From Desulfobulbaceae bacterium (lineage in GTDB: Bacteria; Desulfobacterota; Desulfobulbia; Desulfobulbales; SURF-16): a DNA stretch of 64,000 bases. Location of the stretch: contig JAHLLM010000004.1 of assembly GCA_020444175.1 (NCBI GenBank), forward strand, positions 13,399 through 77,398, in the 5' to 3' direction. The notes beneath the pieces were generated by a model. It worked only from the letters and a program-made list of their open reading frames with translations. It searched no databases and was not told the DNA's origin. This document shows positions 6,770 through 25,317 of the stretch, one piece after another. Every line of letters begins with the position of its first letter. The stretch's first letter is position 1. Made by a program: the position numbers and the translations under genes.

Positions 6770-6787
6770 CTTTCTTCTCCCCTTTTA

Positions 6788-7519: not shown

Positions 7520-10500
7520 TTAAAATGGTGCCAATTGATTTAAGTAGTTGAATGCCTCGGTGACGCCGTTCTCAAAACCACCGCCTGAAGCCTCTTTGGT
7601 GAACTCTCTCTCGCCTGACAGATTTCGCCACGTTGCCGTCAGTTTAAAGCCGACCTTGAATGTTACTCCGCCTTTGAAGGCTTCCGGTATGCCGCCGAGC
7701 AGTTTCAGTTGGCTCTTTTCGGCAATATAGCTTGCCCCACCCAGTTTTGTTTTAACCTTGTTTATTTCTATTTTTGTTTTCTCCATGGCAAGATACCAGT
7801 GAATGCCTATGTCATAACCCTCGCCGATTAATTCCATGTAGCTTGCCAGAAATTGTATATTCGTGGTGCTGAAACCATGCAGAAAACCTGCAAGTGCGGC
7901 CGATACCTCTTTGCCGCTTGGATAAGACAACACAACGACATAGCTTACAAGCGCTGTTTGTCCACTGGGGTCGGTATAAGTGACCGGATTATTCATGACA
8001 TAGGAGTATAGGTTGAGTGACTGGGGCAGGGTCAGGTCGCCCTGCTGCCCGTCACGTTGCAGGAAGCGTCCCAGGGCAGGATCGTAGGCCCTTGTTCTGT
8101 AATGGTAAAGACCGCTTTCCGCATCATACTCCCGACCGGTATATGTGAATGTGTTGACAAGTCCTGCTCCGCTGAAAGAGAAACTGCCGGAGTTTACAAG
8201 AAGCTGTCCCCAGGCGTCATATCCATAACGTTGCACCACATTCCCCGAGGAGTCGGTCAAGGCCACGACATTGCCCTGGCCATCCGCATGGTAAAAATAG
8301 ACGGAGCCGCCCTGCAGTGTCATCAGTGGTTCGTCCACCCTGTTGCTGTAAACATAATGGGCGGCCAGGGTGCCGTTGAGGTACTCGCTGAGAATGTGCT
8401 GGTTATCGTAGAGGTATTCACGGCTGTCGGCGGCAACAGTTTTTGCTGTGCGGCGTCCCATGGAGTCGTATTGATAGGTTGCCGTGAGTGTGCCGGAGCT
8501 GAACCCGGTCAGACGGGATGCACTGTCGTAGGAGTAGGCCGGGCCACCCGTAAAGGTCGTCATGTTGCCGTTTGGATCATAACTGTATGTGGTCGCGCCT
8601 CTTTGGTGCAGGGAGTTGTCTGTATTATAGGTTTCCGGGGTCCCTGCCGTAAAGCGGTTGCCGACGTTGTCATAGCTGAAGGTTTGGCTCGTTGTTCCCA
8701 GGTTCGTTGAGGAGATGTCTTCCCCGGTAAGCCGGTTCAGATTGTCAAGGGCCCAGCTGATGGAACCATCCGCTAGTGTGACGCCGGTGCGGTTGCCAAG
8801 GCTGTCGATTGTGTAGTCGTAGCTTGCTATTACTGTATCTGCGGCATCTTTTATAAGGATTGAATCAAGTCGGCCAAGGGAGTCATAGCCATAGGTGGTG
8901 GTCACGCCGTTTGAATAGGCAGCCGTCTGCCGCTGACCGGCAGCATTATAGCTAAAAGTGACCTGGTTGCCTCCTGCCTGCACTGAGTGCAGCCTGGAAG
9001 CGGCATCATAGGTGTAGATTATTTCCGTGCCGTCCGCAGCCGTTACTTTGGTGCGATTACCGGCTGTATCATACTCGTAGGCCACTGTGCGTCCATTGGG
9101 GTCAGTGACGCTTGCCAGCCAGCCGAAAGCGTTGTAAGTCATGTTGGTGATGAGGTCACTGCCGCCGTAGTTTTCCACCATCTGGGTGATCCGGCTGTTT
9201 TCGTCATATGTATAACTTACAGTGCCTTCGGGTTTGGTCTCTCTGACCAGACGTCCCATGTCGTCTCTGTCAAAAGTGATGCTCGCCCCGTCAGCCAATG
9301 TTTTGCCTGAGATATAGCCCTCTGCGTCATAGCTGAATCCTGAGCTGTTGCCCAATGGATCGGTGCGGTTGACCATCCTGCCGAGCCCGTCATAGTCATA
9401 AAGGCTTGGAACGCCATTGGCATTGGTAAGAGTTGTCATCTTGTTGATGTTGTTGTAGTCGAGCATGACCACCCCGGCCTGAGAATCGGTCACCTGGGAG
9501 AGGTTGCCGGAACCTGTGTAGGCGAAGCTGTCCGTGCCGTTGGCGTCGGTCCGCGATGTTATCTGGCCTTCATGATTGGAATTCAGGCTGAAAAGGATTT
9601 CGCCATCATGGTCTGTGACGGTTGCCAGATTGCCCATACCATCATAGGTAAAGCTTGTACGTTGACCGAGGCCGTCAATGATTGCCGTTTTCCTGCCCAG
9701 AGTGTCATACTCGTAAGAGGTTGTGAGACCGGCAGCATCAGTCATGCTGGTCTGGTCGCCAAAGGCATTGTAGGCTGAGTGGCTTATCTGGCCATTGGCA
9801 TTTGTATGGCTGAGACGGTTTCCGGAACCATCGTATGTCCAGCTTTCTGAAAAGAGGACAGTGCCGCCGCTGTTTTTCTTCTCTTTTGTCAGCGGGTTGC
9901 CGTCAGCGTCATACGTATAAAGAGTCTGGTCTCCCAGGGGATTCGTAATGCTGGTGACCTGGTTAAGTGAGTTATAGGTAAAGGTTCTGGTGAGCGCAGA
10001 GCCAGGATCAGCACTGTCTGTATAGCGGGTTTCGCTCAGCTTGTTGCCGTTGCCGTCATAGGTGAAGGTTATTTTCCTTCCACTTGGGTCGACACGTTCA
10101 AGCAGGTTGCCGTTGGCGTCATAAGAAAAAGAGGTAAGTCCGACAAGGGAATCGTTTTCCTCCACCACATTAGCCATGGAGTCGTAGGTATAGGTAATGC
10201 TGTGTCCGTTTGGATCGGTAACCGTCTCCTGACGTGCCGGCGGATTATAGCTGTATTCTGTCCGGTTCCCCAGGCTGTCAAGGTGGGCACTGAGTCGCCC
10301 GTCCGGGTAATATTCATTTCTGAGTGGCAAATGGCCATCCGGGGCCTGGATTTCCAGGAGATAATGGTCGCTGCCATAGACATATGTGGTTACATTGCCG
10401 TTCTGGTCGGTAAACTGAACGAGATCTCCGGCACCATCATAGGTGTAGGTCGTCTGCTGGCCGGCAGGATCGATAATGTTTGTGATACGACCTTGACCGT

Positions 10501-13500
10501 CTCTGGCAAATGTCACGTTTCGGCCTGTATTGGTGGTGATACCGTCAGTGGTAATTTCCATGAAATTACCGATTCTGTCTTCTATTCTATTGATCCCGAA
10601 GTCTTGATTAATGGTATATGTCAAGCCTGTTTTTGTACGCAGGACATAGGTTTCGGGATTGAAGATACCGGCTGAGTCGAGGAAGAAATACCAGTCTCCT
10701 CCTGAATAAACAACGGAGTGATTTCCGATAAAGTCAAGTTCATCATAGACCCCGGGAGGGGCTGTGAACTTGGCTTCGTACATCGGGAACCACGGTGAAA
10801 TTTGTACTGGAGTAAAGGCAAAGGCCACTCTGCGTCCGTCCGGCAAAGTGATAAAGACATTATGGCTCGCATCTTCACGGATATCAGCATTTTTCATATC
10901 CAGGGTCCAGCCGGCTCCAAAATCATCCTGGATGTTACGACTGCTGTCGTAGCTGCGTGTGAGGCTCAGGTCCATGCCCATGAGCGGCATGGCCAGATCT
11001 TCGTAGCTGATCACAAATCGTCCAAGCTGCAGAGGATCATTGACCTGACAATCAATCCAGGAGGATGAACTCTGGTTGGCATCATAGGCCGTGAGGCGGA
11101 AGCGGTAAAAGTCGTTGGTAAGTGTTCCTGCGTCAATCTGGCCGAGCAGGCCGCCTGTTACCGAGGTGTTGCCGCTTGCAATCTCGGTCCACTGATCACT
11201 GCCCACAGGGGCATATTCAAGAAGCCAGGAGGTCAGGTGGTCATCGCTTGCTGTTCCCTCAATGGCAATGACGCCGCTGATGATGTCTCCGGCTGCAGGT
11301 GTTGCAAAGGAAACCTGCGGCGGAACTTCATCTTCAGCTGCAGCCGGATCATAGACAATGACTGTGGCGCTATCTGTTGCGTTTCCTCCGAAGCCGTCAT
11401 CAGCAGTCAACATGACTGTGTAGCTGCCCGAGGTATCAAAGGTCAGATCCACTGTTGTTCCTGTATATGTATCACCGTCGTACGTCCAGGTATAGGTCGG
11501 CGTATCGCCGTCAGGATCAGCACCGTTGGCGGTTAAGGTGATCGGTGTTGCTATGGCCCCTTGATATGGTCCGCCTGCATCAATTACCGGATCGTTATTT
11601 GGAGGATGGGCAATGCTTAGGAGCTGCGTCGTTGTATTGGTGGCGCCTCTGTCATCGGTTACCGTCAGGCTTACAGTGTAGTCGCCGGGATCTGCATAGG
11701 CATGACTGACCATGGTGCCGGTGGTGGAGAGGCCGTCACCGAAATCCCATTGCCAGTTGGTTAGGGGCAGACTTTCCGGATCGCTTGATACGCTGCCGTC
11801 AAAGGTCAGTGTCTGCCATTTGAGGAGTTCTCCGGTTACGCTGAATGCTGCCGTCGGAGGCTGATTGGGTGGAGTTACATTGACCGTTGCGCCGGCTGAG
11901 TCCAGTCCGCCTCTACCGTCATCAACGGACAGAGAAACGTTAAAGAGTCCTTCACTGGTGTAAACATGGCTGACAGTCACGCCGTATTCGGGTGGGGTGC
12001 TGTCGCCGAAGTTCCAGGTATAGGTGAGCGGATCGTTGTCCGCATCATAGGACGCGCTGCCGTCAAAGGTGATTGCCGTATTAACCGCACCCGTATACGG
12101 ACCACCAGGATCGGCTATGGGAGGCGTGTTGGGCAGTTCCACCTGACAGGAGGTCTCCGCATGACCGGTGGCTCCCCGGTCGTCGGTAACATACAGGGTA
12201 ACTGTATATATGCCATCTGCCGTATAGGTGTGGCTTACCTGAATGCCATGCTCCTCGCTGCCGTCACCAAAGACCCAGTGATAATCAACAATCAGGTCTC
12301 CTTCTGGATCATAGGAGCCGCTGGCGTCAAAATTTATCTCTTCATTGATCAAAGAACTGTAGGGGCCGTCATGCACTGCAATCGGCGCGTCATTCGGCCG
12401 TGGGCTCACTTCGATCTGGAAGAACTGCGTGGCGGATATGCCGTCACCGTCGGTAACACGGATCATCACGTCATGAACTCCCCATTGGCTGCGCAATGGA
12501 GTCCAGATAATAAGCCCGGAGGCAGGATCGATCGTCATGCCGTCCGGTGCCAAATCAAGCAGAAAGGTCAAAGCGCTTCCCTCCGGGTCACTTGCTTCGA
12601 CATCATATTCGTAGAGTATTTCTTCAACAGCTTCTGTTATCGGAGTACTTGATATAACCGGGGGAAGGTTGATGATTCGTCCCTGTGAATAGACATAGAT
12701 CGGATAGGAAATCAGCTCTTCGCCGTTAATTTCCGTGAAAATGCGGTACCAGTAATCTTTGTCAAGCTCGATTCCCGTAACCTGCATACAATCTGTGCGG
12801 CCAAGTTCGTCAGCGATAAATGCCGCATCAATGCCATCAACATCAAGGTCTTCGTCAAAATCGCCCAGGCAGGGGAAGGTGGCAGGGTCGCAGTCAATAC
12901 GACCGAGCTCAAGGGCAAAAAGTGCTTCATCATCAGCATCAACGACAGCGTCGTCATTGAGGTCGGAAGCGCAGGTATTGGCTAGTTCGCCAACGTTTTC
13001 TGCCAGATTGTGGTCAAGGAAAGATGCATAGGTAGAGGGGCTTGTGCCTATTTGCCTGAAAGCTTCATTGGGGCCGATTTCCGAACGGAAAATACGATAG
13101 GCAGTGGCACCGGCCAGTGGAGACCAGAGAAGCTGGCATTTCGTATATTTGGGTCTGGCTGAAAGCCCGGTAACGCCGATATTGTAGACAGCGACCTCGC
13201 CATAATCCACATTGGTCAGGTCCGGCTGAGCGGATTGCGGAAACACGGTTGCTGTATTGTCGGTGACGCGCAGGGCGATATCAAAGCGGCCGGATGAGGT
13301 AAAGGCCGGGAGTATGGCTGTCTCCCCGGTGGCTTCTGCAAAATCGTATGGGGCAATAAAATCAGACTCCCAGTCCCAGGCGGTGATTGAGTCGCCTTCA
13401 GGCTCATCGATATCATAGGAGCCGGAGCCGTCTACCTGGACTTCTTCCCCAACGGCAGTCAGATAAGGGCCGCTCATCACTGCAGTCGGCGGATGGGGAG

Positions 13501-15700
13501 GGATAGTAACATGCATGGTGAGACTTGAGGTGTCGAAACGCACCGGTGTCGAGTTGTCAAGAACCTTGAGACTCACTGTGTAGTCCTGCAACTGGCCGAA
13601 GGCATGGTCAACTGTCACTCCCAAAGCATCGGGGTGAACAAAGTCAACTCCGTCCGAGGCGTCAAAATCCCACAGGTAATCAACTATTTCTTTGGCTGGA
13701 TCGACGTGGTAGGAGCCCGAGGCGTCAAAGTGAATGAGCTGCCCCACAGCGCCGGGATTTGGTGCGGCATTGATAATTGCCACCGGAGGTTTTTCAAACA
13801 GGGTACGGGTCAGGATGATGACGTCCCAGGCCGTGGCCGTCCGTTTTCCTAACCAGCTATAATTATTCCAGGATCCATCAGAGTTTTGATGGTTGACCAG
13901 ATGGCGCGCCATTCCATAGGTTTCATCTCCGTACCAGTCGAGTCCCGTTGCTGAAAGATGGGTAACCTCTTGGGGGAGAGCGAGCCGCAAGGCTTTGGTG
14001 AACGCATAATAACCATATGTGAATTGTCCATTCCATTGGCCGAGAAATGAACTCCAGGAGTTGGCTAACCAGTTTTCAGCTGTCTGCCAGCGCGAGTCGC
14101 TGGTGGTGAAACCGTCAAAGGCCAGCTGCACCATTCCTGAAGGTGTCGTTGCCCAGCCGTTTCCGCTTCCCGTATAGCCAAAACCTGTGCCATTATAGCT
14201 GTTAATCAACCATGAGTTGTTTCTGTCTTTTACCCATTGTGGAACCGTGCAGCCAAAGTTATTTTCAGCCGGTATCATGCCGATGGCCCCCCATTGGGCT
14301 GCGGAGTTATCAGGCCAGTCTTCCCAGTTGTAACGCCAGCCGCCATAGGTGTTGTGTTGTCCCCAGGCGTACATGTCAACCATATCCTGGACAATATCCT
14401 GATACCGGCGGCCAAGGACATTGGCTCCCCCGGACTGGGCCATGGCATCAGGTGAGCCGGTAGCCACAAAGGCGTCCATCACAGCACCAGTTTCATAGAT
14501 TGAGCGACCGCTGGACCAGCTGAGCCCGATGCCATTGCTATTTGTATCAGGATTGGCTGGGTTGCCGCTGCTGTCCGTACCCTGGATCGTCATGTTGGTT
14601 GAACCCAGGCCGCTCAGCAGATAATCGATGCCTCCCAGCACTGCTCCCACATATGGGTCTTCGTTTGAATCTCCTGTTTCATGGTGGCCGTTGATCTCAA
14701 AGGCCTGCACTGCCGATGCTGTTGAATTGCCATAGTAGCCCGTATAGTCGGATGCAGGATAATTCTGCCAGCGAACACTTGGGTTTGGATTCCAGTAGAG
14801 TTCGGCTCTGGCTCCACTTCCAGCTTCATAGTACTCCATGACGATGTCATGTCTGCCGGCACTCATATACAAGAATGAAGTGTAATTCCACGTAGATGCC
14901 TGATTTTCCCAGTCATTTATAAGAAGTTGGTTGTCGATAAAGAGCCGCACTCCATCATCGGTACGGGTTGCAAATTGGTAGTAGCCATTTTCTTTGATGT
15001 CAATTTCTCCACTCCAACGGATACTGAAAGAGTCTACCCCCATTCCACTGATTGGAGCTCCTACCCAGTAAAAATTTACCTGGGAATCAACACGACTTGT
15101 GAAAAAATCGTTAAAATTGTAGTTGTCGTAATATTCACCTAGCAAACCCGGATCTCCATCTGGTGTGAAGAGAGACGTGGTTGGAATGATTTGTTGGGAA
15201 CCTGAAAACTGCTTGTTCGTATAGAGCCACCACAAACCGTCGTCAATGGACTTGTTGACTTCCACGTCCAGGTTTTGGGCACGGATGAGGATACGGTAGT
15301 CGTCCGAGGAGGATTCTCCGGCAGTATCGGTAACGTGCAGGCGAGCGATAATAAGCGTACCCGGGTCAGCAGAATAGGTATGGGTTGCTGCAAGGTTGTC
15401 GGCATTGGTGATGGTCTGTACGGGGGAAACATCGCCATCGCCAAATTCCCAGTAATATGTGCCGCCGAGATGGTCACCGTCTGCATCCCTGGCAATGCCC
15501 TTCAAAATAGTTGGTTCCCCGGACCAAGTCTCATGGGGAACTAGAAGATCAGTTGGTACCTGTGGAACGGTAATAACCTGGGGAGGAGCTGCTGAAGCAA
15601 TGCTCGGGCCGATTATTAAAGAAGTAAAAAAGAATCCGAAATGGACAGTGAGTAAAAAGAAAAATGCTTTAACAAAATAATCACTTTTCTGTTGATTCAT
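7520..15700 (-). CDS. Giant RHS/YD-repeat surface protein with PKD, PA14, terpene-cyclase-like toroid and dockerin-like modules and a variable C-terminal domain
   Basis: The track ORF is 2744 aa (to 15754). The likely start is ATG 15700, preceded by GGGGGAGAG, giving MNQQKSDYF plus a hydrophobic anchor.
Modules in order:
- PKD-like module.
- PA14 (GLLGEYYDNYNF...AELYW, about 14795-15150).
- Prenyltransferase/squalene-cyclase-like repeats (GGWRYNWEDWPDNSAAQWG, HQNSDGSW).
- Dockerin-like Ca loops (DLNDDAVVDADD, DFDEDLDVDGID).
- Five tandem PKD domains.
- Dozens of YD repeats (YxYDxxGN).
- RHS core end YDPALGRFLQRDG...NLYSYVMNNPVTYTDPSG. Confidence 0.9.
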   Translation of the reverse strand: MNQQKSDYFVKAFFFLLTVHFGFFFTSLIIGPSIASAAPPQVITVPQVPTDLLVPHETWSGEPTILKGIARDADGDHLGGTYYWEFGDGDVSPVQTITNADNLAATHTYSADPGTLIIARLHVTDTAGESSSDDYRILIRAQNLDVEVNKSIDDGLWWLYTNKQFSGSQQIIPTTSLFTPDGDPGLLGEYYDNYNFNDFFTSRVDSQVNFYWVGAPISGMGVDSFSIRWSGEIDIKENGYYQFATRTDDGVRLFIDNQLLINDWENQASTWNYTSFLYMSAGRHDIVMEYYEAGSGARAELYWNPNPSVRWQNYPASDYTGYYGNSTASAVQAFEINGHHETGDSNEDPYVGAVLGGIDYLLSGLGSTNMTIQGTDSSGNPANPDTNSNGIGLSWSSGRSIYETGAVMDAFVATGSPDAMAQSGGANVLGRRYQDIVQDMVDMYAWGQHNTYGGWRYNWEDWPDNSAAQWGAIGMIPAENNFGCTVPQWVKDRNNSWLINSYNGTGFGYTGSGNGWATTPSGMVQLAFDGFTTSDSRWQTAENWLANSWSSFLGQWNGQFTYGYYAFTKALRLALPQEVTHLSATGLDWYGDETYGMARHLVNHQNSDGSWNNYSWLGKRTATAWDVIILTRTLFEKPPVAIINAAPNPGAVGQLIHFDASGSYHVDPAKEIVDYLWDFDASDGVDFVHPDALGVTVDHAFGQLQDYTVSLKVLDNSTPVRFDTSSLTMHVTIPPHPPTAVMSGPYLTAVGEEVQVDGSGSYDIDEPEGDSITAWDWESDFIAPYDFAEATGETAILPAFTSSGRFDIALRVTDNTATVFPQSAQPDLTNVDYGEVAVYNIGVTGLSARPKYTKCQLLWSPLAGATAYRIFRSEIGPNEAFRQIGTSPSTYASFLDHNLAENVGELANTCASDLNDDAVVDADDEALFALELGRIDCDPATFPCLGDFDEDLDVDGIDAAFIADELGRTDCMQVTGIELDKDYWYRIFTEINGEELISYPIYVYSQGRIINLPPVISSTPITEAVEEILYEYDVEASDPEGSALTFLLDLAPDGMTIDPASGLIIWTPLRSQWGVHDVMIRVTDGDGISATQFFQIEVSPRPNDAPIAVHDGPYSSLINEEINFDASGSYDPEGDLIVDYHWVFGDGSEEHGIQVSHTYTADGIYTVTLYVTDDRGATGHAETSCQVELPNTPPIADPGGPYTGAVNTAITFDGSASYDADNDPLTYTWNFGDSTPPEYGVTVSHVYTSEGLFNVSLSVDDGRGGLDSAGATVNVTPPNQPPTAAFSVTGELLKWQTLTFDGSVSSDPESLPLTNWQWDFGDGLSTTGTMVSHAYADPGDYTVSLTVTDDRGATNTTTQLLSIAHPPNNDPVIDAGGPYQGAIATPITLTANGADPDGDTPTYTWTYDGDTYTGTTVDLTFDTSGSYTVMLTADDGFGGNATDSATVIVYDPAAAEDEVPPQVSFATPAAGDIISGVIAIEGTASDDHLTSWLLEYAPVGSDQWTEIASGNTSVTGGLLGQIDAGTLTNDFYRFRLTAYDANQSSSSWIDCQVNDPLQLGRFVISYEDLAMPLMGMDLSLTRSYDSSRNIQDDFGAGWTLDMKNADIREDASHNVFITLPDGRRVAFAFTPVQISPWFPMYEAKFTAPPGVYDELDFIGNHSVVYSGGDWYFFLDSAGIFNPETYVLRTKTGLTYTINQDFGINRIEDRIGNFMEITTDGITTNTGRNVTFARDGQGRITNIIDPAGQQTTYTYDGAGDLVQFTDQNGNVTTYVYGSDHYLLEIQAPDGHLPLRNEYYPDGRLSAHLDSLGNRTEYSYNPPARQETVTDPNGHSITYTYDSMANVVEENDSLVGLTSFSYDANGNLLERVDPSGRKITFTYDGNGNKLSETRYTDSADPGSALTRTFTYNSLNQVTSITNPLGDQTLYTYDADGNPLTKEKKNSGGTVLFSESWTYDGSGNRLSHTNANGQISHSAYNAFGDQTSMTDAAGLTTSYEYDTLGRKTAIIDGLGQRTSFTYDGMGNLATVTDHDGEILFSLNSNHEGQITSRTDANGTDSFAYTGSGNLSQVTDSQAGVVMLDYNNINKMTTLTNANGVPSLYDYDGLGRMVNRTDPLGNSSGFSYDAEGYISGKTLADGASITFDRDDMGRLVRETKPEGTVSYTYDENSRITQMVENYGGSDLITNMTYNAFGWLASVTDPNGRTVAYEYDTAGNRTKVTAADGTEIIYTYDAASRLHSVQAGGNQVTFSYNAAGQRQTAAYSNGVTTTYGYDSLGRLDSILIKDAADTVIASYDYTIDSLGNRTGVTLADGSISWALDNLNRLTGEDISSTNLGTTSQTFSYDNVGNRFTAGTPETYNTDNSLHQRGATTYSYDPNGNMTTFTGGPAYSYDSASRLTGFSSGTLTATYQYDSMGRRTAKTVAADSREYLYDNQHILSEYLNGTLAAHYVYSNRVDEPLMTLQGGSVYFYHADGQGNVVALTDSSGNVVQRYGYDAWGQLLVNSGSFSFSGAGLVNTFTYTGREYDAESGLYHYRTRAYDPALGRFLQRDGQQGDLTLPQSLNLYSYVMNNPVTYTDPSGQTALVSYVVVLSYPSGKEVSAALAGFLHGFSTTNIQFLASYMELIGEGYDIGIHWYLAMEKTKIEINKVKTKLGGASYIAEKSQLKLLGGIPEAFKGGVTFKVGFKLTATWRNLSGEREFTKEASGGGFENGVTEAFNYLNQLAPF
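7523..7957 (-). other. C-terminal variable (putative toxin/effector) module of the RHS protein; 145 aa after the PVTYTDPSG boundary
   Basis: The sequence after the conserved RHS core-end motif is TALVSYVVVLSYPSGKEV...GVTEAFNYLNQLAPF. I recognise no catalytic motif in it. By eye it is more AT-rich than the repeat region. Confidence 0.6.
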
Positions 15701-15864
15701 CGCTCTCCCCCAAAAGCTTAATTCATCATTTAAGAACATCAGGCCGACATTCAAAAAAAATGGATATTTTTTAAAAAAAATGGTTCGTTCTACCGCTTTT
15801 TTTCAGTTTGATAATCTGAATTTGTGTAATGGATTTATGCTGTTATATAATTTTATTTACTAAA

Positions 15865-17159: not shown

Positions 17160-17212
17160 TATGCAACTTGTTCCATTGACTTCATTTTTCTGGTTTGATA
17201 CCTTGAAGGGTA

Positions 17213-18451
17213 TTGATGAAAGAGAGTAAACCACATAAAAAAACAGGTGTCTGGCTTGTTGGAGGACTTGGCTCAATTGCCGTTACCGTCATGGTCGGTG
17301 CCCTGGGCTTCCGAAAAGGCCTTGTTCCTTCATCAGGAATGGTGACAGAGAGTGAGGCGTTTTCTCAAATTGAGTTACCTGATGTCAGTGAATTTGAATT
17401 TGGTGGCTGGGATATCCGTCAGGACACCGTTTATGCTGCAGCACAAAAAATGGTTCAGGAATGCCGGACCATTGATCCTTCACTTCTTGGAAAGATTGCC
17501 CCAGAGCTTGATGAAATAAACAGGTGGATGAAACCGGGGCTTACTCGCAATTGCGGCCAGGCCATAGAATCCCTGGCCGCGGGAAGCGCACCGGGGACGC
17601 GATCTCTTCTTGAGGAAGTAAACGAGCTGCGCAGCCATCTGCGTTCTTTTAAGGAGGAAAAGGGGCTTACTGGTCTTGTCGTTATCAATCTTGCCTCCAC
17701 CGAGCCTTCTCTTGACCTGCAAGAGCATCATGAAAGCATTGCCTTGTTTGAAGCGCGTATAGCGGAAAATAAGGCGTGTGATATCCGGGCAAGCAGTCTC
17801 TATTCGTATGCCGCTCTTCTGGAAAGATGCCCTGTAATCAACTTTACCCCGTCTCCCGGTACACTGATTCCTGCTCTGATTGACTTTGCCGGACACCAGG
17901 GACTTCCTGTTATGGGCAATGATGGAAAGACAGGAGAAACCCTGGTGAAATCGGCTCTTGCTCCCATGTTTCTTTCACGGAATCTGGAAATACTCAGTTG
18001 GGAAGGGTTTAATATCCTTGGAAACATGGATGGCGAGATTCTGAATACCTCTGAAAACCGGGCAACGAAAATTAAATCAAAGGATAAGGTTTTAAGCGGC
18101 ATCCTGGGTTATCAGCCTCATTCCAGGGTGCATATAAATTATGTGCCCTCCCTAGGCGATCAGAAAACAGCGTGGGATTTTATTCATTTTCAGGGCTTTC
18201 TCGGTGCAAAGATGTCCTTGCAGTTTACCTGGCAGGCCTATGATTCCCTGCTGGCGGCTCCTCTTGTCCTTGATCTGGTTCGCCTGGCGCAACTGGCAAA
18301 AGAGAGAGGGGAATCCGGTGTCATGCCGCATCTGGCAAGTTTTTTCAAGGCACCGCTTGGCACGGATTGTTTTGATCATCATCAGCAGACAGATATGCTG
18401 GTGCAATATATTTCACAGGTTACAAGTGATGGAGGAGAATCATGGGAGTGA
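17213..18451 (+). CDS. ino1: myo-Inositol-1-phosphate (inositol-3-phosphate) synthase
   Basis: 412 aa. N-terminal Rossmann VWLVGGLGSIA. MIPS-typical GNDGKTGETLVKSALAPMF and FNILGNMDGEIL. Confidence 0.85.
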   Translation: MMKESKPHKKTGVWLVGGLGSIAVTVMVGALGFRKGLVPSSGMVTESEAFSQIELPDVSEFEFGGWDIRQDTVYAAAQKMVQECRTIDPSLLGKIAPELDEINRWMKPGLTRNCGQAIESLAAGSAPGTRSLLEEVNELRSHLRSFKEEKGLTGLVVINLASTEPSLDLQEHHESIALFEARIAENKACDIRASSLYSYAALLERCPVINFTPSPGTLIPALIDFAGHQGLPVMGNDGKTGETLVKSALAPMFLSRNLEILSWEGFNILGNMDGEILNTSENRATKIKSKDKVLSGILGYQPHSRVHINYVPSLGDQKTAWDFIHFQGFLGAKMSLQFTWQAYDSLLAAPLVLDLVRLAQLAKERGESGVMPHLASFFKAPLGTDCFDHHQQTDMLVQYISQVTSDGGESWE

Positions 18452-19629
18452 GAATTTTCATTTGTCTTGTTGTCGGTTGTTTGCTGTCTTTTGGCAATAC
18501 CGCCATGGGTGAAGAGCTAACAGTCAAGCCACAAGCGCGGGCCAGCGATCTTTCTTTAAAAAAAGAGGTGAGCCATGCCCTGGAAAAAGGGCTTGGCTGG
18601 CTTGAAAAAAATCAAAATTCAGGCGGCTACTGGTCGCAGCCGGAGCATCCTGCTTTGACGGCTTTGGTTCTCACCGCTTTCATGGGCGAACCTGCCGGCA
18701 GAATCAAGTCTCATCCTCCGGAGTTTGTGACAAACGGTTATAAGTACCTGTTGTCCACAGTTCAGGGTGATGGTGGGATCTATGTCACGGATCTGGCCAA
18801 TTACAATACCTCCATTTCCATTATGGCTTTGCTGATGGCTGGGAATCCAAAATTTGATCCAGTCATCAGAAAGGCAAGAAATTTTACCGTGGGCCTGCAG
18901 AGTGATTTTGATGAAAAGGGCTCAATTGATAATCCCTATGACGGTGGCATTGGCTATGGCGGCCGTTATAAACATTCCGACCTTTCCAATACCATGTTTG
19001 CCTTGGAAGCCATTCATTACACAAAACATCTGGCTGATAGTGGTGATGCAGCTAACGAACCGCTTGCTGAGCTCAACTGGTCTGCAGCCAGACGGTTTAT
19101 TGAACGCTGTCAAAATCTTCCGTCCACTAATGATCAACCCTGGGCCAGCGATGATCCTCAAAACAGGGGCGGTTTTGTCTATTTCCCTGGAGACAGCAAG
19201 GCTGGAGAGGTTGAGCTCCCCTCAGGGAAAAAGGCGCTGCGTTCCTACGGAAGTATCAGTTATGCCGGACTGCTGAGTTATATTTACGCGGATCTGGAAA
19301 AAAATGATAAACGTGTCCAGGCGGTTTTTGATTGGCTGCAGAAGAATTACACACTGGATGAAAATCCCGGTATGGGGGCGCAAGGACTCTTCTATTATTA
19401 TCACACCATGGCAAAAGCCCTTGCTGCCATGGGAGCCGAGGCTGATGAGCTGGAACTGGCTGACGGGAAGAAAGTCAACTGGAGACGCGATTTGGCCTTT
19501 AAGCTGCTCAATGTGCAAAATGCGGATGGCTTCTGGATGAATGAGAACGGTCGCTGGTGGGAGCGCGATCCTGTTCTGGTAACGGCCTATGCCGTGATTA
19601 CCCTGGAAGTTCTTTATCGCGGCCTGTAA
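18442..19629 (+). CDS. Secreted prenyltransferase/squalene-cyclase-repeat (alpha/alpha-toroid, terpene cyclase-like) protein
   Basis: 395 aa with a signal peptide (IFICLVVGCLLSFGNTAMG). Repeated QxxxGGW-type motifs: KNQNSGGYW, VQGDGGIY, VQNADGFW. GGAGGAG RBS. The start overlaps the MIPS stop by 10 nt. Confidence 0.7.
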   Translation: MGVRIFICLVVGCLLSFGNTAMGEELTVKPQARASDLSLKKEVSHALEKGLGWLEKNQNSGGYWSQPEHPALTALVLTAFMGEPAGRIKSHPPEFVTNGYKYLLSTVQGDGGIYVTDLANYNTSISIMALLMAGNPKFDPVIRKARNFTVGLQSDFDEKGSIDNPYDGGIGYGGRYKHSDLSNTMFALEAIHYTKHLADSGDAANEPLAELNWSAARRFIERCQNLPSTNDQPWASDDPQNRGGFVYFPGDSKAGEVELPSGKKALRSYGSISYAGLLSYIYADLEKNDKRVQAVFDWLQKNYTLDENPGMGAQGLFYYYHTMAKALAAMGAEADELELADGKKVNWRRDLAFKLLNVQNADGFWMNENGRWWERDPVLVTAYAVITLEVLYRGL

Positions 19630-19631
19630 GG

Positions 19632-20474
19632 GTGAGGCTCTCTTTCAGTACCAACGCCTTTACTCGCTTTACCGTTTGTGAGGCAGTGGGGAAAATTGGA
19701 GATCTTGGCTATCAGGGAGTGGAAATTCTGGCGGATGTTCCCCATCTTTATGCTGATAGCGTTGGGGAAGAAGAAGTGCGTGAACTCAAAGAAGCAGTAT
19801 CTCGCTCCCATCTCAAAGTGGCAAATATCAATACAAATACGGCGGCAGGGTACTATGCTGGAGCATTCTGGGAGCCTCTTTTTGAACCTTCGCTGGCCAA
19901 CCCGGATGAGATGGCAAGAAAATGGCGCATTGATTACACAAAAAAGGCGATTGATTTTGCGGTTTTTCTTGAATCGCCAGGGATAAGTATCACTTCCGGC
20001 AGGCCGGTTCCCGGTTGCGATCCTGAATATGGACTTGGTTTGCTGCAGGATTCTCTTGTTCAATTACTCGACTATGCCGGCCAGCGAGGGGTTAGAATAG
20101 GTATAGAGTATGAACCAGGACTCCTCATCGAGTCCTGCCGTGAGTTGGCGGAATTTCTTCAAGTGCTTGATAGCCCAATGCTTGGGGCAAACCTGGATCT
20201 CGGTCATAGTTATCTGCTTGGTGAAGATGTGGCTGATGTTCTGCGCCAACTTGACGGGAAGGTTTTTCATATCCATCTGGAAGATATGAAGGGCAAAAAA
20301 CATTTTCATCTTATTCCTGGACTTGGTAGTATGAATTTTGAGCATTTGCTCACAACGTTAAAGGAAAAATATGACGGATTTGTCACGGTGGAGCTGTACA
20401 CCTATCCCCAATCTCCGGAAGAGGCGGCCCGCAGGGCAATGTCCTATTTGCTCCAGTTCCCGGTCTGGTCATAA
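19632..20474 (+). CDS. Xylose-isomerase-like TIM-barrel protein (sugar phosphate isomerase/epimerase; EboE-like), copy 1
   Basis: I prefer the GTG start at 19632 (in frame with track start 19557). It gives RLSFSTNAFTRF...GYQGVEILAD, colinear with the paralog start at 21287 (MKFAFSSNAFRKY...GYEGIEIMAD). It sits 3 nt after the previous stop. Confidence 0.75.
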   Translation: MRLSFSTNAFTRFTVCEAVGKIGDLGYQGVEILADVPHLYADSVGEEEVRELKEAVSRSHLKVANINTNTAAGYYAGAFWEPLFEPSLANPDEMARKWRIDYTKKAIDFAVFLESPGISITSGRPVPGCDPEYGLGLLQDSLVQLLDYAGQRGVRIGIEYEPGLLIESCRELAEFLQVLDSPMLGANLDLGHSYLLGEDVADVLRQLDGKVFHIHLEDMKGKKHFHLIPGLGSMNFEHLLTTLKEKYDGFVTVELYTYPQSPEEAARRAMSYLLQFPVWS

Positions 20475-20486
20475 GAGGAGAAGACT

Positions 20487-21287
20487 ATGCGCATGATTGA
20501 ACCCCATATCCATACAATGGTGAGAACGACTGATGATTATTACAATATGGCGGTGGCGGGAATTGTCGCCTGTGTAGAACCTTCTTTCTGGTCAGGTATG
20601 GATCGTCGTTCTGTTGCCTGTTTTGAGGATTACTGGGAGCATATGCTTACTGTGGAAACCGAACGGGCCAGGAAATACGGTATTAAGCATTACGTCATGC
20701 TCAGCCTGAACCCGAAGGAGGCCAGGAATGAAATTGCCCATGATGTGGTTGATGCAATGGAAAAGTTTCTTGATCATCCAGCCGTGGTGGGGATTGGCGA
20801 AATAGGCTTTGACCTGATTACCGAGCAGGAGGAGGAAATTTTCCGTCGGCAGCTGCAAATGGGCAATGCGCGTAAAATGCCTATCTGTATCCACTCACCC
20901 CATCAGAATAAACTGAAGGGGATTGAGCGTATTATAGAGATCATCGAAGATGAGGGAGTGGCCCAGGAACGTATTGTCATTGATCATAATACGGAAGAGA
21001 CCATTGAGCTCAGCCTGCAGACCCGATGCTGGATGGGGATGACCGTGTATTATGTCACCAAATTAAGTGCCGAAAGGGCGGTTGCCATCATTGGCCGCTA
21101 CGGTACAGACAGGATGATTGTGAACGGTTCAGCGGACTGGGGCTATTCCGATCCACTGGCTGTTCCCAAGGTGGCTATGTTGATGCGTAAAAGCGGAGAT
21201 TTTCCAGAGAGTTCCATTCAGAAAATCGTCTTTGAAAATCCTTATAATTTCCTGAATCATTCAGAAAATTTTGAGCTCGATACCTGA
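20487..21287 (+). CDS. TatD-family metal-dependent hydrolase (EboB-like)
   Basis: 266 aa. TatD/amidohydrolase ligand pattern: EPHIH, GEIGFD, ICIHSPH, VIDH. Confidence 0.7.
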   Translation: MRMIEPHIHTMVRTTDDYYNMAVAGIVACVEPSFWSGMDRRSVACFEDYWEHMLTVETERARKYGIKHYVMLSLNPKEARNEIAHDVVDAMEKFLDHPAVVGIGEIGFDLITEQEEEIFRRQLQMGNARKMPICIHSPHQNKLKGIERIIEIIEDEGVAQERIVIDHNTEETIELSLQTRCWMGMTVYYVTKLSAERAVAIIGRYGTDRMIVNGSADWGYSDPLAVPKVAMLMRKSGDFPESSIQKIVFENPYNFLNHSENFELDT

Positions 21288-22105
21288 TGAAATTTGCTTT
21301 CAGTTCAAATGCCTTCCGAAAATACTCGCTGATTGAAACTATCAAAATTCTTTCTGATATCGGTTATGAAGGAATAGAAATAATGGCGGACAGGCCCCAT
21401 GCCTTTCCGCCTGATTTGTTTCCGGATGATATTGCCGCTCTTAAAAAGACCCTGAGAGACTGTAATATGCAGGTCTCAAATATCAATGCATTCATGCTCC
21501 ACGCCATAGGCGACACCTGGCACCCTTCCTGGATAGAGGTAGATGAGGAGCTGCGGCGGCAGAGAGTGGAGCACACCAAGGATTGCATCAGGCTGGCAGC
21601 ATCTCTTGGTGTTGCCAGCATCTCAACCGAACCTGGCGGACCTTTGGACGGCATGGATGAAAAGAAGGGGCGGGAGCTCTTTTTGGACGGGCTCATGGAG
21701 GTGCAGGAGCTGGCACGCCGTGAAAACATCAGGGTGCTCATAGAGCCGGAACCGGATCTGCTCATCGAAAACAGCACGCAGTTTATCGATTTTTTTAAGC
21801 TGCTTGATCCGCATGTTTTTGGGCTTAATTTTGACATTGGTCATTTTTTTTGCGTAGGTGAAGATCCCGCTTTTCTGGTTGAAAAAATGGCAGGATGCAC
21901 CGGGCACTATCACCTGGAGGATATTGCCGCAAGCCGGGTGCACCATCATCTTTTGCCAGGCCAGGGGGCAATTGATATTGCCGGGGTGCTGCATGCCATA
22001 AAAGAGAGTGATTATAATGGTTTTGTCACAGTGGAGCTCTATCCGTATGAGGATCGGCCGATTGAGACAGCTCGTGAGGCCTTGAGATTTCTGGAAAATC
22101 TCTAA
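21287..22105 (+). CDS. Xylose-isomerase-like TIM-barrel protein (sugar phosphate isomerase/epimerase; EboE-like), copy 2
   Basis: 272 aa, paralogous to 19632..20474. The ATG overlaps the preceding TGA by 1 nt. Confidence 0.75.
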   Translation: MKFAFSSNAFRKYSLIETIKILSDIGYEGIEIMADRPHAFPPDLFPDDIAALKKTLRDCNMQVSNINAFMLHAIGDTWHPSWIEVDEELRRQRVEHTKDCIRLAASLGVASISTEPGGPLDGMDEKKGRELFLDGLMEVQELARRENIRVLIEPEPDLLIENSTQFIDFFKLLDPHVFGLNFDIGHFFCVGEDPAFLVEKMAGCTGHYHLEDIAASRVHHHLLPGQGAIDIAGVLHAIKESDYNGFVTVELYPYEDRPIETAREALRFLENL

Positions 22106-22180
22106 CTGCAGAAATAAGAATTCAGGATTCTTTTCCTCCATCTTTGGGACCAATATGTCGGCGCTGGAGCAGAAAATAAT

Positions 22181-23068
22181 TTGAAAAACGTGGACACTAC
22201 TACAAAAATAAAGGGCTTTCTGCAGCTTGCCAGGTTCCCCAATACCTTTACGGCAATGGCTGATATTATGGCGGGAGTGCTCATTGTCTCGGGTTTTCAA
22301 TTCAATCTTTTTTCTCTGGGGTTTCTTTTGCTGGCAAGTGCTTCAATTTACGGAGCGGGTTGTGTATTAAATGATATCTGCGACCGCAAGGAAGATAGCA
22401 TCACCCGACCTTCTCGTCCACTTCCCTCCGGAGTTGTGTCCCTGCCCCAGGCTGCTCTCTTCTGTGTGGTTCTTTTTGGCACTGGCGTCTGCGCAGCAGC
22501 CATGGCTGGAAAGACATCGTTGCTTCTGGCAACCTGTCTTATCGCAGTGGTTATCACCTATGACTGCCTGAGCAAGAGTGTTTTCATCTTCGGGCCCTTG
22601 ACCATGGCGGCCTGCAGGTCTATTAACCTTCTGCTCGGCATGAGTGTTAATCTGACATTTGGACACGCTGCTGTTTTTCCTTTTCTTACCCTTGGCTATA
22701 TTTATTTTCTAACCTGGCTTGCCACCTTTGAAACAGGAAAAGAACAGGGAGCGGCCAGGTGGGTTATTTTTTGCGGGATTCATTTTATTCTGTCCGTGTT
22801 TTTACTGCTCACTGTGGCGAGGTATTTTCATCCGGACGGTCTTGCTTATCTGCTGCTGGTTTTGCTGGTCAGCGGTCCGCATCTCTGGAAAGCTGCTCTG
22901 AAACCAGGATCTGAGACAGCCGGTAAGTGTGTGAAGTGGCTGGTGCTTTCCATACCCCTTCTTGATGCCGCCTATGTGGCCGCAACCCATAACTGGCTTT
23001 ACGGGCTTCCCGTTGTTTTTTTTCTGGTTCCTTCCCTTATCTTTGCAAAAATATTCTATGTGACCTGA
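22181..23068 (+). CDS. UbiA-family aromatic/polyprenyl prenyltransferase (EboC-like)
   Basis: 295 aa with 8-9 TM helices. Asp-rich motif NDICDRKED (NDxxDxxxD). The track start is TTG 22181; GTG 22190 is an alternative. Confidence 0.8.
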   Translation: MKNVDTTTKIKGFLQLARFPNTFTAMADIMAGVLIVSGFQFNLFSLGFLLLASASIYGAGCVLNDICDRKEDSITRPSRPLPSGVVSLPQAALFCVVLFGTGVCAAAMAGKTSLLLATCLIAVVITYDCLSKSVFIFGPLTMAACRSINLLLGMSVNLTFGHAAVFPFLTLGYIYFLTWLATFETGKEQGAARWVIFCGIHFILSVFLLLTVARYFHPDGLAYLLLVLLVSGPHLWKAALKPGSETAGKCVKWLVLSIPLLDAAYVAATHNWLYGLPVVFFLVPSLIFAKIFYVT

Positions 23069-23072
23069 TGAT

Positions 23073-24404
23073 ATGAGAAAAAAAAGAGTTGTCGTGATTG
23101 ATGTTGTCGGACTGAGTTGCAGCCATCTGGAACAAAGAGAGGCTATCCCAAATATTTCCGCGCTCAGTGATTCCGGCATTTCATGCAACATGAAACCGCC
23201 ATTCCCCGCATTGACTTTGCCTGCCCAGGCCACATTGACAACAGGCCTTTCCCCCTCTCAACACGGGGTGGTTGCAAACGGATTCTATTTCCCTGAAAAT
23301 TTCCAGGTCTCTTTCTGGGAACAGGCCTGCAGTCTCGTGCAGGGAAAGCCTGTCTGGCAGCAGATACGGGAAGAAAATTCAGATCTCTCAACCGCTCTTC
23401 TGTTCATGCAGAATTCACTTTTTGCTGATTGCAAGGTGGTCATGACCCCCAAGCCAATGCACACCGAAGATGGACTTGTTCCCTGGTGCTATTCAAAACC
23501 CGTTGGTTTTTATGAAGAAGTGTGCCGTGATATTGGTGAATTCCCCCTCTACCATTATTGGGGCCCTCGTGCCGGTATTGAATCGAGCCGCTGGATTGCC
23601 GATGCCGCCCTGAAAACCCTGGAGATTCATGGGCCAGATCTGATGTTTGTTTATCTGCCCCATCTCGACTACTCCTGCCAGAAGTTCGGGCCGGGAAGTT
23701 CGGAGGTGATGGCTGAACTGACTCGGATTGATCATGAAGTTGGCAGAATTGTTGCCGGTGTCGATGCGCTTGGATTGCGTGATGAGACGGTTTTTGTTGT
23801 CCTTTCCGAGTACGCTTTTTCCACTGTGGTGGATGCCGTTCCCTTAAACCGCATTCTCCGCCAGCACAATCTTCTCCATGTCCGGGAAATAAGGGGGAAA
23901 GAGTACCTTGATTTTGAGTTGAGTCCTGCCTTTGCCATGGTTGATCATCAGATTGCCCATATTTATATCAAAGATGGTTTTAAGAAAGAAGTGGGTGCAG
24001 TGCTGGAAAAAGAGGATGGTATTGAAATGCTGCTGCAAGGCGATGGAGATAAAAAACTATATAACATTGACCATGGGCGGGCAGGCGACATCATAGCAGT
24101 CAGCAAGAGGGACAGGTGGTTTTCCTATTACTGGTGGCTGGACGATCGGTATGCTCCTGATTTTTCCGGAAAAGTGGATATCCATCGAAAGCCGGGTTAC
24201 GATCCGCTTGAGCTTTTTTTTGATCCAGAAACTCGGAAAATTCCCCAGGATACCAAGCTTATCCGAGGCTCCCACGGTTATCCGCCCCGAGCTGAAGAGG
24301 ATTTTGTCCCCCTCATCATAAACGGTAAGCTGCCTGATGAGCTTTTTGAGACAGGTATCGTGTCAATGGAAGATGTTGCTGGTTTTATAAAGAAAATACT
24401 CTAA
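23073..24404 (+). CDS. Alkaline phosphatase / nucleotide pyrophosphatase family protein (EboF-like)
   Basis: 443 aa. N-terminal VVVIDVVGLS...PALTLPAQATLTTGLSPSQHGVVANG (nucleophile region) and C-terminal GSHGYPP. Starts 4 nt after the UbiA stop. Confidence 0.75.
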   Translation: MRKKRVVVIDVVGLSCSHLEQREAIPNISALSDSGISCNMKPPFPALTLPAQATLTTGLSPSQHGVVANGFYFPENFQVSFWEQACSLVQGKPVWQQIREENSDLSTALLFMQNSLFADCKVVMTPKPMHTEDGLVPWCYSKPVGFYEEVCRDIGEFPLYHYWGPRAGIESSRWIADAALKTLEIHGPDLMFVYLPHLDYSCQKFGPGSSEVMAELTRIDHEVGRIVAGVDALGLRDETVFVVLSEYAFSTVVDAVPLNRILRQHNLLHVREIRGKEYLDFELSPAFAMVDHQIAHIYIKDGFKKEVGAVLEKEDGIEMLLQGDGDKKLYNIDHGRAGDIIAVSKRDRWFSYYWWLDDRYAPDFSGKVDIHRKPGYDPLELFFDPETRKIPQDTKLIRGSHGYPPRAEEDFVPLIINGKLPDELFETGIVSMEDVAGFIKKIL

Positions 24405-24514
24405 CAGACTGTTGAAAAACTACTGCACTCGAAGTCTCATTTTGTTGGCTATCTGCTGATACTGCGTCAGGATTCAGCGTTTCTGCGGTGCTCACTACGT
24501 TTTGCAACAGTCTG
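24405..24514. repeat. Intergenic palindromic repeat family 1, copy A
   Basis: Ends are CAGACTGTTGAAAAAC ... GTTTTGCAACAGTCTG. Internal CTGCTGATACTGCGTCA is shared (inverted) with the copy at 50184-50460. Confidence 0.7.
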
Positions 24515-24561
24515 CTCAGGAATGCTGGCACTATTTTCTAGAAAAAGAGGGCGTCTTCCTT

Positions 24562-25263: not shown

Positions 25264-25317
25264 TTTTTTCCCCTGCTCTTTTCTTAGCTGTTTTTGAAAT
25301 ATTGAAAGATAAAAAAA

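Follow-up and report, generated by a model that had tools for sequence, protein, structure and literature searches.

A MIPS-type variant of the ebo gene cluster in a Desulfobulbaceae bacterium with a probable exchange of the carbocycle-supplying module

RESULTS

An eight-gene locus of ebo type

The ebo gene cluster directs a pathway that has recently been linked to the bacterial signal thallusin, and here we describe a probable variant of it in a 64,000-nucleotide stretch of a Desulfobulbaceae genome assembly (GCA_020444175.1, contig JAHLLM010000004.1, positions 13,399 to 77,398; hereafter the window). Eight consecutive co-directional genes occupy 16500-24404 of the plus strand in the order DedA-MIPS-barrel-TIM1-TatD-TIM2-UbiA-NPP (Table 1), in which MIPS is an inositol-phosphate synthase, the barrel a secreted (α/α)6-barrel protein, TIM1 and TIM2 two short xylose-isomerase-like TIM barrels, and NPP a nucleotide pyrophosphatase/phosphodiesterase. 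An initial annotation made from the sequence had described seven tightly packed plus-strand genes; its open reading frames (ORFs), families and spacing all held, but TIM1 starts at 19632 rather than 19557 and the DedA gene had been missed. Gene starts were refined with the help of a gene call made independently on a Logan contig of identical sequence, together with a reading of the sequence. The junctions from DedA to NPP are +56, -10, +2, +12, -1, +84 (or 75 with the alternative UbiA start) and +4 nt, making 84 nt the largest spacer inside the cluster. Pattern scans for promoters and terminators across 15500-25400 stayed at the level of shuffled sequence (16 vs 12 ± 3.9 and 15 vs 12.4 ± 4), and Rfam returned nothing in the cluster region, its sole match being a tRNA at 41681-41753. 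We consider it very probable that the cluster is a MIPS-type variant of the ebo pathway with an exchanged module, and DedA is the probable first gene of an eight-gene operon that ends with NPP.

Table 1. Genes of the cluster, accessory genes of the window, and six-gene cores in Bacillota
Feature	Coordinates	Strand	Remarks
DedA/VTT-domain membrane protein, 219 aa	16500..17159	+	PF09335; probable operon start, candidate flippase
MIPS (myo-inositol-1-phosphate / inositol-3-phosphate synthase), archaeal type, 411 aa	17216..18451	+	PF07994 + PF01658
Secreted single-domain (α/α)6-barrel, squalene-hopene-cyclase/prenyltransferase-repeat type, 395 aa	18442..19629	+	Weak PF13243, hydrophobic N-terminus
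TIM1, short xylose-isomerase-like TIM barrel, 280 aa	19632..20474	+	PF01261
TatD-like amidohydrolase-fold hydrolase (EboB-like), 266 aa	20487..21287	+	PF01026
TIM2, short xylose-isomerase-like TIM barrel, 272 aa	21287..22105	+	PF01261
EboC-like UbiA prenyltransferase, 292-295 aa	22190..23068 (start 22181 alternative)	+	PF01040, NDICDRKED at residues 64-72
EboF-like NPP, 443 aa, without signal peptide	23073..24404	+	PF01663, 182 bits
Inositol monophosphatase-family protein (IMPase), possible accessory gene	5215..6045	+	PF00459, 240 bits
YdjY-domain protein, recurrent neighbour	6788..7519	-	NCBIfam ydjY_domain 138.5 bits, cut-off 50
PA14/He_PIG/PKD surface protein, 2744 aa, recurrent neighbour	7520..15754	-	Domains from gene call on identical contig
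Bacillus six-gene core	L086, Bacillus sp. JAS24-2 plasmid NZ_CP031069, 5491-11417
Brevibacillus brevis six-gene core	L096, CP134050, 7336-13266

MIPS and two short TIM barrels in the place of EboD and EboE

The MIPS protein is recovered by both of its domain models (PF07994, 164 bits; PF01658, 118 bits) and matches A. fulgidus MIPS (1u1i) over its full length (E=3e-95, ~50% identity). Equivalents of N255, K274, K278, K306, D332 and K367 are all kept, and on these residues the enzyme is predicted to be catalytically intact. It is 51-69% identical to the MIPS proteins of other Desulfobacterota clusters and is the only cyclitol-forming enzyme of the cluster, as had been stated before. The reported absence of EboD and EboA was also borne out: EboD has no BLAST match among the window ORFs, no large ORF of the 64 kb carries PF01761, and neither EboA nor EboG was found in the window, where the small ORFs of the upstream spacer match nothing. 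A 94-aa protein of L003, a canonical Desulfobacterota cluster, also lacks a BLAST match in the window, and it is encoded by the MIPS-type loci L012 and L017.

The two TIM barrels had been taken for a duplicated EboE. On the NCBIfam EboE model (NF035939) TIM1 scores 17.6 and TIM2 42.7 bits against a cut-off of 250, whereas the genuine EboE of L003 (404 aa) reaches 433.7 bits, and BLAST of the window TIM barrels against EboE yields E values of 6e-5 and 6e-4 only. TIM1 and TIM2 are 36% identical to one another, and each has orthologs of its own. The TIM1 orthogroup is 43-58% identical across Desulfobacterota, Bacillus and Haladaptatus and 32-38% identical to TIM2, while TIM2 is 45-69% identical to a UbiA-adjacent ortholog in Desulfobacterota, Bacillus, Brevibacillus, Haladaptatus, Pirellulales and Isosphaeraceae. 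The EboE scores, the low mutual identity and the closer orthologs in Bacillus and haloarchaea rule out a recently duplicated EboE; the two are instead a distinct pair that co-varies with MIPS. Since both orthogroups hold across Desulfobacterota, Bacillus and haloarchaea, the duplication is old, with a separate role for each copy. TIM2 always lies directly upstream of UbiA in MIPS-type clusters, and numerous acidic and histidine positions of its alignment are invariant, E153, D183, H209 and E250 among them. The nearest solved structures of the two proteins are MJ1311, the best match of TIM1, and IolI; models of the IolE, IolO and IolI type are matched weakly (44-75 bits against cut-offs of 290-300).

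Loci for comparison were gathered from contigs encoding homologs of UbiA, the barrel and TIM2 and from a scan with the UbiA alignment, using one genome per GTDB species, and the window and canonical Ebo proteins were searched by BLAST against all ORFs of the 90-odd loci. We then classified 87 non-redundant EboC-centred loci by module. EboD is encoded in 61 of the 87 (57 of these also have EboE, and the four that do not are contigs ending right after EboD), and none of the 61 encodes MIPS or a short TIM barrel. Short TIM barrels are encoded in 16 loci, ten of them with MIPS, and EboD or EboE in none of these 16. The exclusivity of the two modules has a Fisher p of 4e-11, calculated over loci that are not phylogenetically independent. 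Within Desulfobacterota both module types are surrounded by the same accessory frame of YdjY, barrel and TonB-dependent receptor (TBDR) genes with PKD and PEP-CTERM neighbours. The EboD-type cluster of Geobacter pelophilus reads YdjY-barrel-EboD-small ORF-TatD-EboE-NPP-UbiA and the EboD-type locus L089 reads TBDR-YdjY-barrel-UbiA-small ORF-TatD-NPP-EboD-EboE, and the MIPS-type locus L093 reads MIPS-YdjY-barrel-TIM1-TatD-TIM2-UbiA-NPP. Strict exclusivity in a common genomic frame argues that MIPS, TIM1 and TIM2 substitute for EboD and EboE as a unit. The earlier view that MIPS replaces EboD is thus right in that EboD is gone and MIPS stands in its place, but too narrow, as the swap is of EboD plus EboE for MIPS plus both TIM barrels.

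The MIPS-type arrangement recurs across phyla

The MIPS-type arrangement was recovered in at least 16 loci of Desulfobacterota, Bacillota, Planctomycetota and haloarchaea, and the linkage of MIPS to ebo genes is kept in at least ten. The order MIPS-(YdjY)-barrel-TIM1-TatD-TIM2-UbiA-(TBDR-TonB)-NPP is found in L004/5, L007, L011, L016, L018 and L093, all of them Desulfobacterota metagenome-assembled genomes (MAGs) whose UbiA proteins are just 39-45% identical to that of the window; L001, L008, L012 and L017 hold rearranged MIPS-type clusters. Gene order is therefore conserved in related genomes, and because it recurs in distant genomes with UbiA proteins that are merely 35-45% identical, the arrangement exceeds what chance would produce. 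A Bacillus megaplasmid and the Brevibacillus brevis chromosome both carry a six-gene core, TIM1-TatD-TIM2-UbiA-NPP-MIPS (Table 1), and PGAP labels the UbiA of the Bacillus plasmid 'UbiA-like protein EboC'. Near both cores lies a gene for a PQQ-dependent / GSDH-like sugar dehydrogenase.

Incomplete sets occur in Pirellulales, in Isosphaeraceae and on a Haladaptatus plasmid. On the last of these (L087; Haladaptatus pallidirubidus plasmid NZ_CP085305, 1569-9797) the order is NPP-TatD-TIM2-UbiA-TIM1; a Gfo/Idh/MocA oxidoreductase and a third TIM barrel are encoded nearby, and no MIPS gene lies within 8 kb. This oxidoreductase is a candidate for the dehydrogenase missing from the bacterial clusters.

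The closest relative of the window cluster is L001 (GCA_016219175.1, JACRCD010000092.1, 5410-12231), with the order IMPase-DedA-MIPS-TIM1-TIM2-UbiA-NPP and with 61% identity in UbiA and 69% in MIPS. The two UbiA proteins form an isolated pair: a search of 5.8 billion protein clusters with the window UbiA returned three proteins at 60% identity or above, the remainder being at 46% or below.

UbiA, TatD and NPP group with EboC, EboB and EboF

The top NCBIfam family of the window UbiA is EboC (NF035940), at a score below the family cut-off, and its identity to EboC from the canonical cluster L003 is 42%. Its N64-D65-x2-D68-x3-D72 motif and Y57 are invariant in the alignment, and a tyrosine equivalent to Y57 has been noted for EboC-type enzymes (PMC9235831). 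In a neighbour-joining tree, calculated without bootstrap values as were all trees here, the window UbiA falls inside a Desulfobacterota EboC clade in which MIPS-type and EboD-type members occur together. TatD has 41-46% identity with Bacteroidota EboB and groups with it in its own neighbour-joining tree; its best match in the PDB is AF_1765. For NPP the identity is 37-42% with Bacteroidota EboF and 55-67% with its Desulfobacterota orthologs, and Xanthomonas NPP (2gsn) is its best PDB match. An EboB-like TatD and an EboF-like NPP are thus encoded in the same operon as an EboC-like UbiA, and by sequence comparison the three group with EboB, EboF and EboC, respectively. Together with the conserved gene order and the lack of eboD and eboA in the 64 kb, this upholds the reading of the locus as an ebo-type cluster.

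TatD is the most conserved member of the cluster, at 78-88% identity to Desulfobacterota orthologs where UbiA stands at 39-45%, MIPS at 51-58%, TIM1 at 52-58%, TIM2 at 60-69% and NPP at 55-62%. This points to either an unusually strong constraint or a recent exchange of the TatD gene alone. In the MIPS-type loci L012 (9977-12046) and L017 (4793-7052) UbiA is followed by a small ORF of 83-100 aa and a TatD of the EboG-associated type, a gene content which argues that TatD subtype and cyclitol module assort independently.

A secreted (α/α)6-barrel protein shared by both cluster types

An AlphaFold2 model of the barrel protein (pLDDT 81.5, pTM 0.82) is a single (α/α)6 barrel, and the top Foldseek matches are the small squalene-hopene cyclases (SHCs) 8paj and 8pak, AprG, MstE (6sbb), drimenyl-PP synthase (7xq4) and GH76. 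Since AprG and GH76 score as well as the cyclases, the fold alone is established for this protein, and sequence-level similarity to SHC is limited to QW-like repeats. The family is well conserved (58-71% identity, ~90 invariant positions), and the window protein, one of two here that match Desulfobulbaceae MAG proteins at 100% identity, is identical to one annotated 'MAG: terpene cyclase/mutase family protein [Desulfobulbaceae bacterium]'. A canonical class II cyclase was considered and set aside in that form, given the degenerate acid motif (see Discussion) and the QW-only match to SHC.

The barrel had been presented as an addition peculiar to the variant; its gene is in fact found in MIPS-type and EboD-type clusters alike, the latter in Geobacter and other Desulfobacterota. 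Of the six family members that were sampled, five adjoin ebo genes of either type and one adjoins a giant protein without ebo genes. In that locus (L094; GCA_964512995.1, 834-10194) the barrel homolog comes right after a 2634-aa protein and beside a ZnuABC-like transporter, with no ebo gene within 9 kb, so the family is not strictly tied to ebo clusters.

DedA, IMPase and recurrent neighbours

DedA scores 65 bits on PF09335 (cut-off 33.9), and a 61%-identical ortholog lies directly upstream of MIPS in L001. The window IMPase is 70% identical to the L001 IMPase encoded directly upstream of the DedA-MIPS pair, and an IMPase gene also flanks the L011 cluster. In the window the IMPase gene is parted from the cluster by an inserted minus-strand block encoding a PEP-CTERM protein, YdjY and the 2744-aa protein; in this block (6026-15754) the YdjY and PEP-CTERM genes lie directly downstream of the gene for the 2744-aa surface protein.

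YdjY genes precede the barrel gene in L004, L007, L008, L012, L016, L017, L088, L089 and L093, and the window YdjY is most like the second YdjY of L089, which adjoins the giant protein of that locus. Barrel and YdjY genes occur in Desulfobacterota/Geobacter loci only, and 57 Bacteroidota loci contain none. Giant or PKD proteins homologous to the 2744-aa protein flank the ebo clusters of L004, L016, L088, L089 and L093. Two further PEP-CTERM genes flank the window cluster (24562-25263 and 28033-28587), and similar giant/PKD, PDZ and PEP-CTERM genes flank both ebo types in L004, L016, L088, L089, L093 and the P0175 contig. The clusters of L004/5 and L007 contain TBDR and TonB genes, and a TBDR gene flanks those of L012 and L089.

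Some neighbours of related clusters have no counterpart at the same place in the window. In L004 (3609-5383), L007 (167-1932) and L016 (3731-5520) the start of MIPS adjoins or overlaps a gene for a NUDIX hydrolase, and a sensor kinase with a sigma-54 response regulator precedes the cluster in L089 (1681-4465) and L093 (3419-6224). Elsewhere in the window, a LigB-family gene at 2129-2908 encodes a protein resembling 4,5-DOPA extradiol dioxygenase (172 bits against a cut-off of 233). This LigB/DODA-like protein was considered as a ring-cleaving enzyme for a thallusin-like product and set aside, as its gene lies 14 kb upstream and is missing from every other locus examined.

DISCUSSION

A farnesylated quinoline as the favoured product

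The initial annotation knew of no described function for such a variant, a statement since overtaken. A bioRxiv preprint of May 2026 ties the ebo genes to thallusin and saccharoquinoline and describes an eboD-less ino1-3 type (10.64898/2026.05.21.724671). In that work ebo genes correlate with thallusin production across five phyla, deletion of eboB, eboC, eboE or eboF in Stieleria abolishes thallusin, and aspartate is incorporated into the thallusin quinoline. EboC enzymes farnesylate hydroxyquinoline carboxylates (PMC9235831), and enzymes from three phyla (Bacteroidota, Planctomycetota and Actinomycetota) farnesylate hydroxyquinolines in vitro, 6,7,8-trihydroxyquinaldate being the substrate in the preprint (10.64898/2026.05.21.724671; PMC9235831). 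The Actinomycetota-type cluster has no eboD and carries ino1 (inositol-3-phosphate synthase), ino2 and ino3, proposed to be a bypass to the same precursor; a Saccharomonospora strain with this eboD-less ino1-3 type is reported to produce thallusin, and Desulfobacterota are listed in the survey of ebo core genes (10.64898/2026.05.21.724671). Thallusin forms an Fe(III) complex (PMC7289720), a property that fits the TBDR genes inside several Desulfobacterota clusters.

Against this background the best explanation overall, which we hold to be reasonably probable, is that the locus is a MIPS-type ebo variant leading to a metal-chelating farnesylated quinoline of the thallusin/saccharoquinoline type. 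The likeliest product would be a farnesylated cyclitol-derived meroterpenoid rather than an inositol lipid, and its placement within the thallusin/saccharoquinoline family itself is offered tentatively, as a suggestion we would put slightly short of an even chance.

In the scheme we propose, an EboB-like TatD, an EboC-like UbiA and an EboF-like NPP would form a shared chassis on which the carbocycle-supplying module is exchanged. MIPS, as suggested by homology and its conserved catalytic residues, would convert glucose-6-phosphate to inositol-3-phosphate. TIM1 and TIM2, metal-dependent enzymes of the IolE/IolI kind, possibly together with IMPase, might isomerise and dehydrate this to the intermediate otherwise supplied by EboD and EboE; the swap itself suggests as much, and also that the two routes come together only beyond the EboE step. 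TatD and NPP would then process the ring and UbiA would add the farnesyl group in the membrane, in keeping with the published EboC assays and the Stieleria ebo deletions. More speculatively, DedA could move the lipophilic product to the outer leaflet, where the periplasmic barrel may bind or modify its terpenoid part, and the product could serve as a metallophore, with re-uptake suggested by the TBDR genes in the clusters of relatives.

These last steps can be extended to a periplasmic leg of the ebo pathway that has not been described, in which the EboC product is flipped in this lineage by DedA, bound or cyclised by the barrel together with YdjY, and retrieved as a metallophore by a TBDR. 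We regard this as improbable. If true, it would reconcile the 2018 phenotype of transport to the periplasm with the 2026 thallusin assignment and could supply the missing terpene-handling protein. We found no literature linking ebo genes to an SHC-like periplasmic protein, to TonB receptors or to DedA in a search that was not exhaustive.

Several points weigh against the thallusin-type reading. The window UbiA reaches 217 bits on the EboC model, below the cut-off of 250, and is just 33-37% identical to Bacteroidota EboC of the assayed type, so its acceptor substrate could differ. No dehydrogenase for the conversion of inositol to inosose, including one of IolG type, is encoded in the cluster. 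L001 has neither TatD nor barrel inside its cluster, although the literature counts eboB among the core genes, and DedA is tied to the cluster in the window and L001 only and was not found in the other MIPS-type loci. For the barrel, the Foldseek matches to 8paj, 8pak, 6sbb and 7xq4 have a probability of 1.0 but a TM score of ~0.5-0.55, which is similarity at the level of the fold only. The stretch equivalent to DxDD, aligned to 'SDVADT' of SsDMS, is S-D180-L-S-N183-T in a weak alignment that is indicative only; D180 and N183 are invariant across 26 barrel homologs, and with the acid motif replaced in this way a canonical class II mechanism is unlikely. Among MIPS-type clusters the chemistry is known solely for Actinomycetota, and the product of the window cluster is a prediction. 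Desulfobulbaceae are mostly anaerobes. An oxidation is proposed as the final step towards thallusin, which sits uneasily with such hosts; the same preprint counts eboE as core, and no true EboE homolog was found in the 64 kb window by NF035939 score or BLAST; and the thallusin link as a whole comes from this single preprint, which is not peer reviewed (10.64898/2026.05.21.724671).

Alternative readings of the cluster

The initial annotation had proposed that the cluster builds a prenylated inositol-derived (phospho)lipid or carrier, and in this model UbiA would prenylate an inositol-derived cyclitol or its phosphate and DedA would flip a carrier that moves other molecules to the periplasm. The UbiA family is known to include enzymes that form polyprenyl-phospho-sugars, decaprenyl-phosphate phosphoribosyltransferase being one. 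The operon encodes a periplasmic barrel of an isoprenoid-binding fold, and the DedA/VTT gene upstream of MIPS in the window and L001 has undecaprenyl-phosphate transporters as its best NCBIfam matches; the best of these, UptA, is matched at 42 bits, far below the cut-off of 250, and DedA is missing from most MIPS-type loci. A prenylated cyclitol lipid carrier was also the proposal of Klicki et al. in 2018, made because ebo mutants retain the scytonemin monomer in the cytoplasm, but that study found no lipid-conjugated intermediate (PMC6282210). EboC enzymes of three phyla farnesylate hydroxyquinolines, the window UbiA retains the tyrosine noted for the EboC group, and ebo deletions abolish a defined small molecule, thallusin, all of which argue against a carrier (PMC9235831; 10.64898/2026.05.21.724671). 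We think this reading unlikely; a prenylated inositol lipid is possible and is not the best-supported product.

A second alternative keeps the same chassis and changes the product: the Desulfobacterota cluster would make a distinct prenylated aromatic or cyclitol metallophore that is handled by the barrel and YdjY and re-imported through a TBDR. With both EboD and EboE replaced, and with anaerobic hosts for which the oxidation proposed as the last thallusin step would be a difficulty, a distinct product might result. The TBDR and TonB genes in or beside the clusters named above, the restriction of barrel and YdjY to Desulfobacterota/Geobacter loci, and a UbiA that is the fastest-evolving cluster member, at roughly half the identity at which TatD is conserved, are consistent with it. 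However, the eboD-less Actinomycetota type is reported to make thallusin, so the swap of the cyclitol module need not change the product, and EboD-type clusters of the same phylum carry the same accessory genes. We judge a distinct product to be quite unlikely.

The last alternative, that MIPS and the TIM barrels are enzymes of ordinary inositol metabolism encoded by chance beside an unrelated UbiA, TatD and NPP, could draw on the weak matches to IolE, IolO and IolI-type models and the nearby IMPase, but it is extremely improbable, given a linkage kept across four phyla at 35-45% UbiA identity, overlaps of 10 nt (MIPS/barrel) and 1 nt (TatD/TIM2), strict exclusivity with EboD/EboE and a TIM2 that is always beside UbiA; the neighbourhood survey effectively excludes chance adjacency.

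Implications of the module exchange

Since the preprint treats an eboD-less type in Actinomycetota, the central idea of such a variant is already published for another phylum, together with a proposed function. New here are the replacement of EboD and EboE as a pair, the extension of the variant to Desulfobacterota, Bacillota and haloarchaea, and the accessory gene set of Desulfobacterota. The ebo product had gone without assignment for a decade and is now tied to thallusin, an iron-binding bacterial signal that shapes seaweed development at picomolar concentrations; the Desulfobacterota clusters extend the pathway into bacteria of anoxic sediment. That the ring-supplying module has been exchanged whole on a common chassis, in some cases inside a single phylum, constrains where each as yet unassigned Ebo enzyme acts. 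The current model has no steps for export, terpene handling and re-uptake, and for these the barrel, YdjY, the TonB receptor and DedA are candidates; the cultured Bacillus cereus-group strains and Brevibacillus brevis, which carry the six-gene core, are tractable hosts for the variant.

Comparison with known systems

TIM1 and TIM2 resemble the TIM barrels IolE, IolI and IolO in belonging to PF01261, in their invariant acidic and histidine residues and in a plausibly inositol-derived substrate, but they fall far below the equivalog cut-offs, and their cluster is without an IolG-type dehydrogenase. The secreted barrel shares its single (α/α)6-barrel fold with MstE and the small class II cyclases (6sbb, 8paj) and with SsDMS (7xq4), of which MstE carries out the cyclisation of a prenylated aromatic acid, a reaction of the type needed for the drimane part of thallusin. 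Unlike these enzymes, to which it is 11-16% identical with a TM score of ~0.5, it is secreted and has D-L-S-N-T at the DxDD position.

Among complete clusters, the EDB cluster of Pseudomonas fluorescens NZI7, which has three extra genes (PMC12904256), likewise combines an ebo chassis with lineage-specific accessory genes; in contrast to the window it keeps eboD and eboC homologs, and its extra genes differ from those found here. The Actinomycetota cluster of Saccharomonospora sp. CNQ-490 is, by its published description, like the window in the absence of eboD and in having an inositol-3-phosphate synthase with two putative isomerases/dehydratases. The two differ in phylum and gene order, the window UbiA fits the EboC model over that of the actinomycete SCO3242 family (217 vs 122 bits), eboE is listed as retained there whereas the window has no true EboE, and the DedA and periplasmic barrel of the window are not mentioned in the preprint. 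None of the weaker UbiA matches examined reached the SCO3242 cut-off, a tblastn search of plasmids returned no actinomycete record, and the literature retrieved on SCO3242-3244 consisted of transcriptome papers.

In the canonical eboA-F cluster (Yurchenko et al. 2016, PMC5133447) a DHQS-like DEI synthase (EboD), an EboE of ~380-400 aa and EboA/EboG stand where the window has MIPS and two short TIM barrels, and the starting sugar is mannose-6-phosphate rather than the glucose-6-phosphate expected here. Both unite an EboC-like UbiA, an EboB-like TatD and an EboF-like NPP with a cyclitol-forming enzyme in one operon, and within Desulfobacterota the two types have their accessory genes and neighbours in common.

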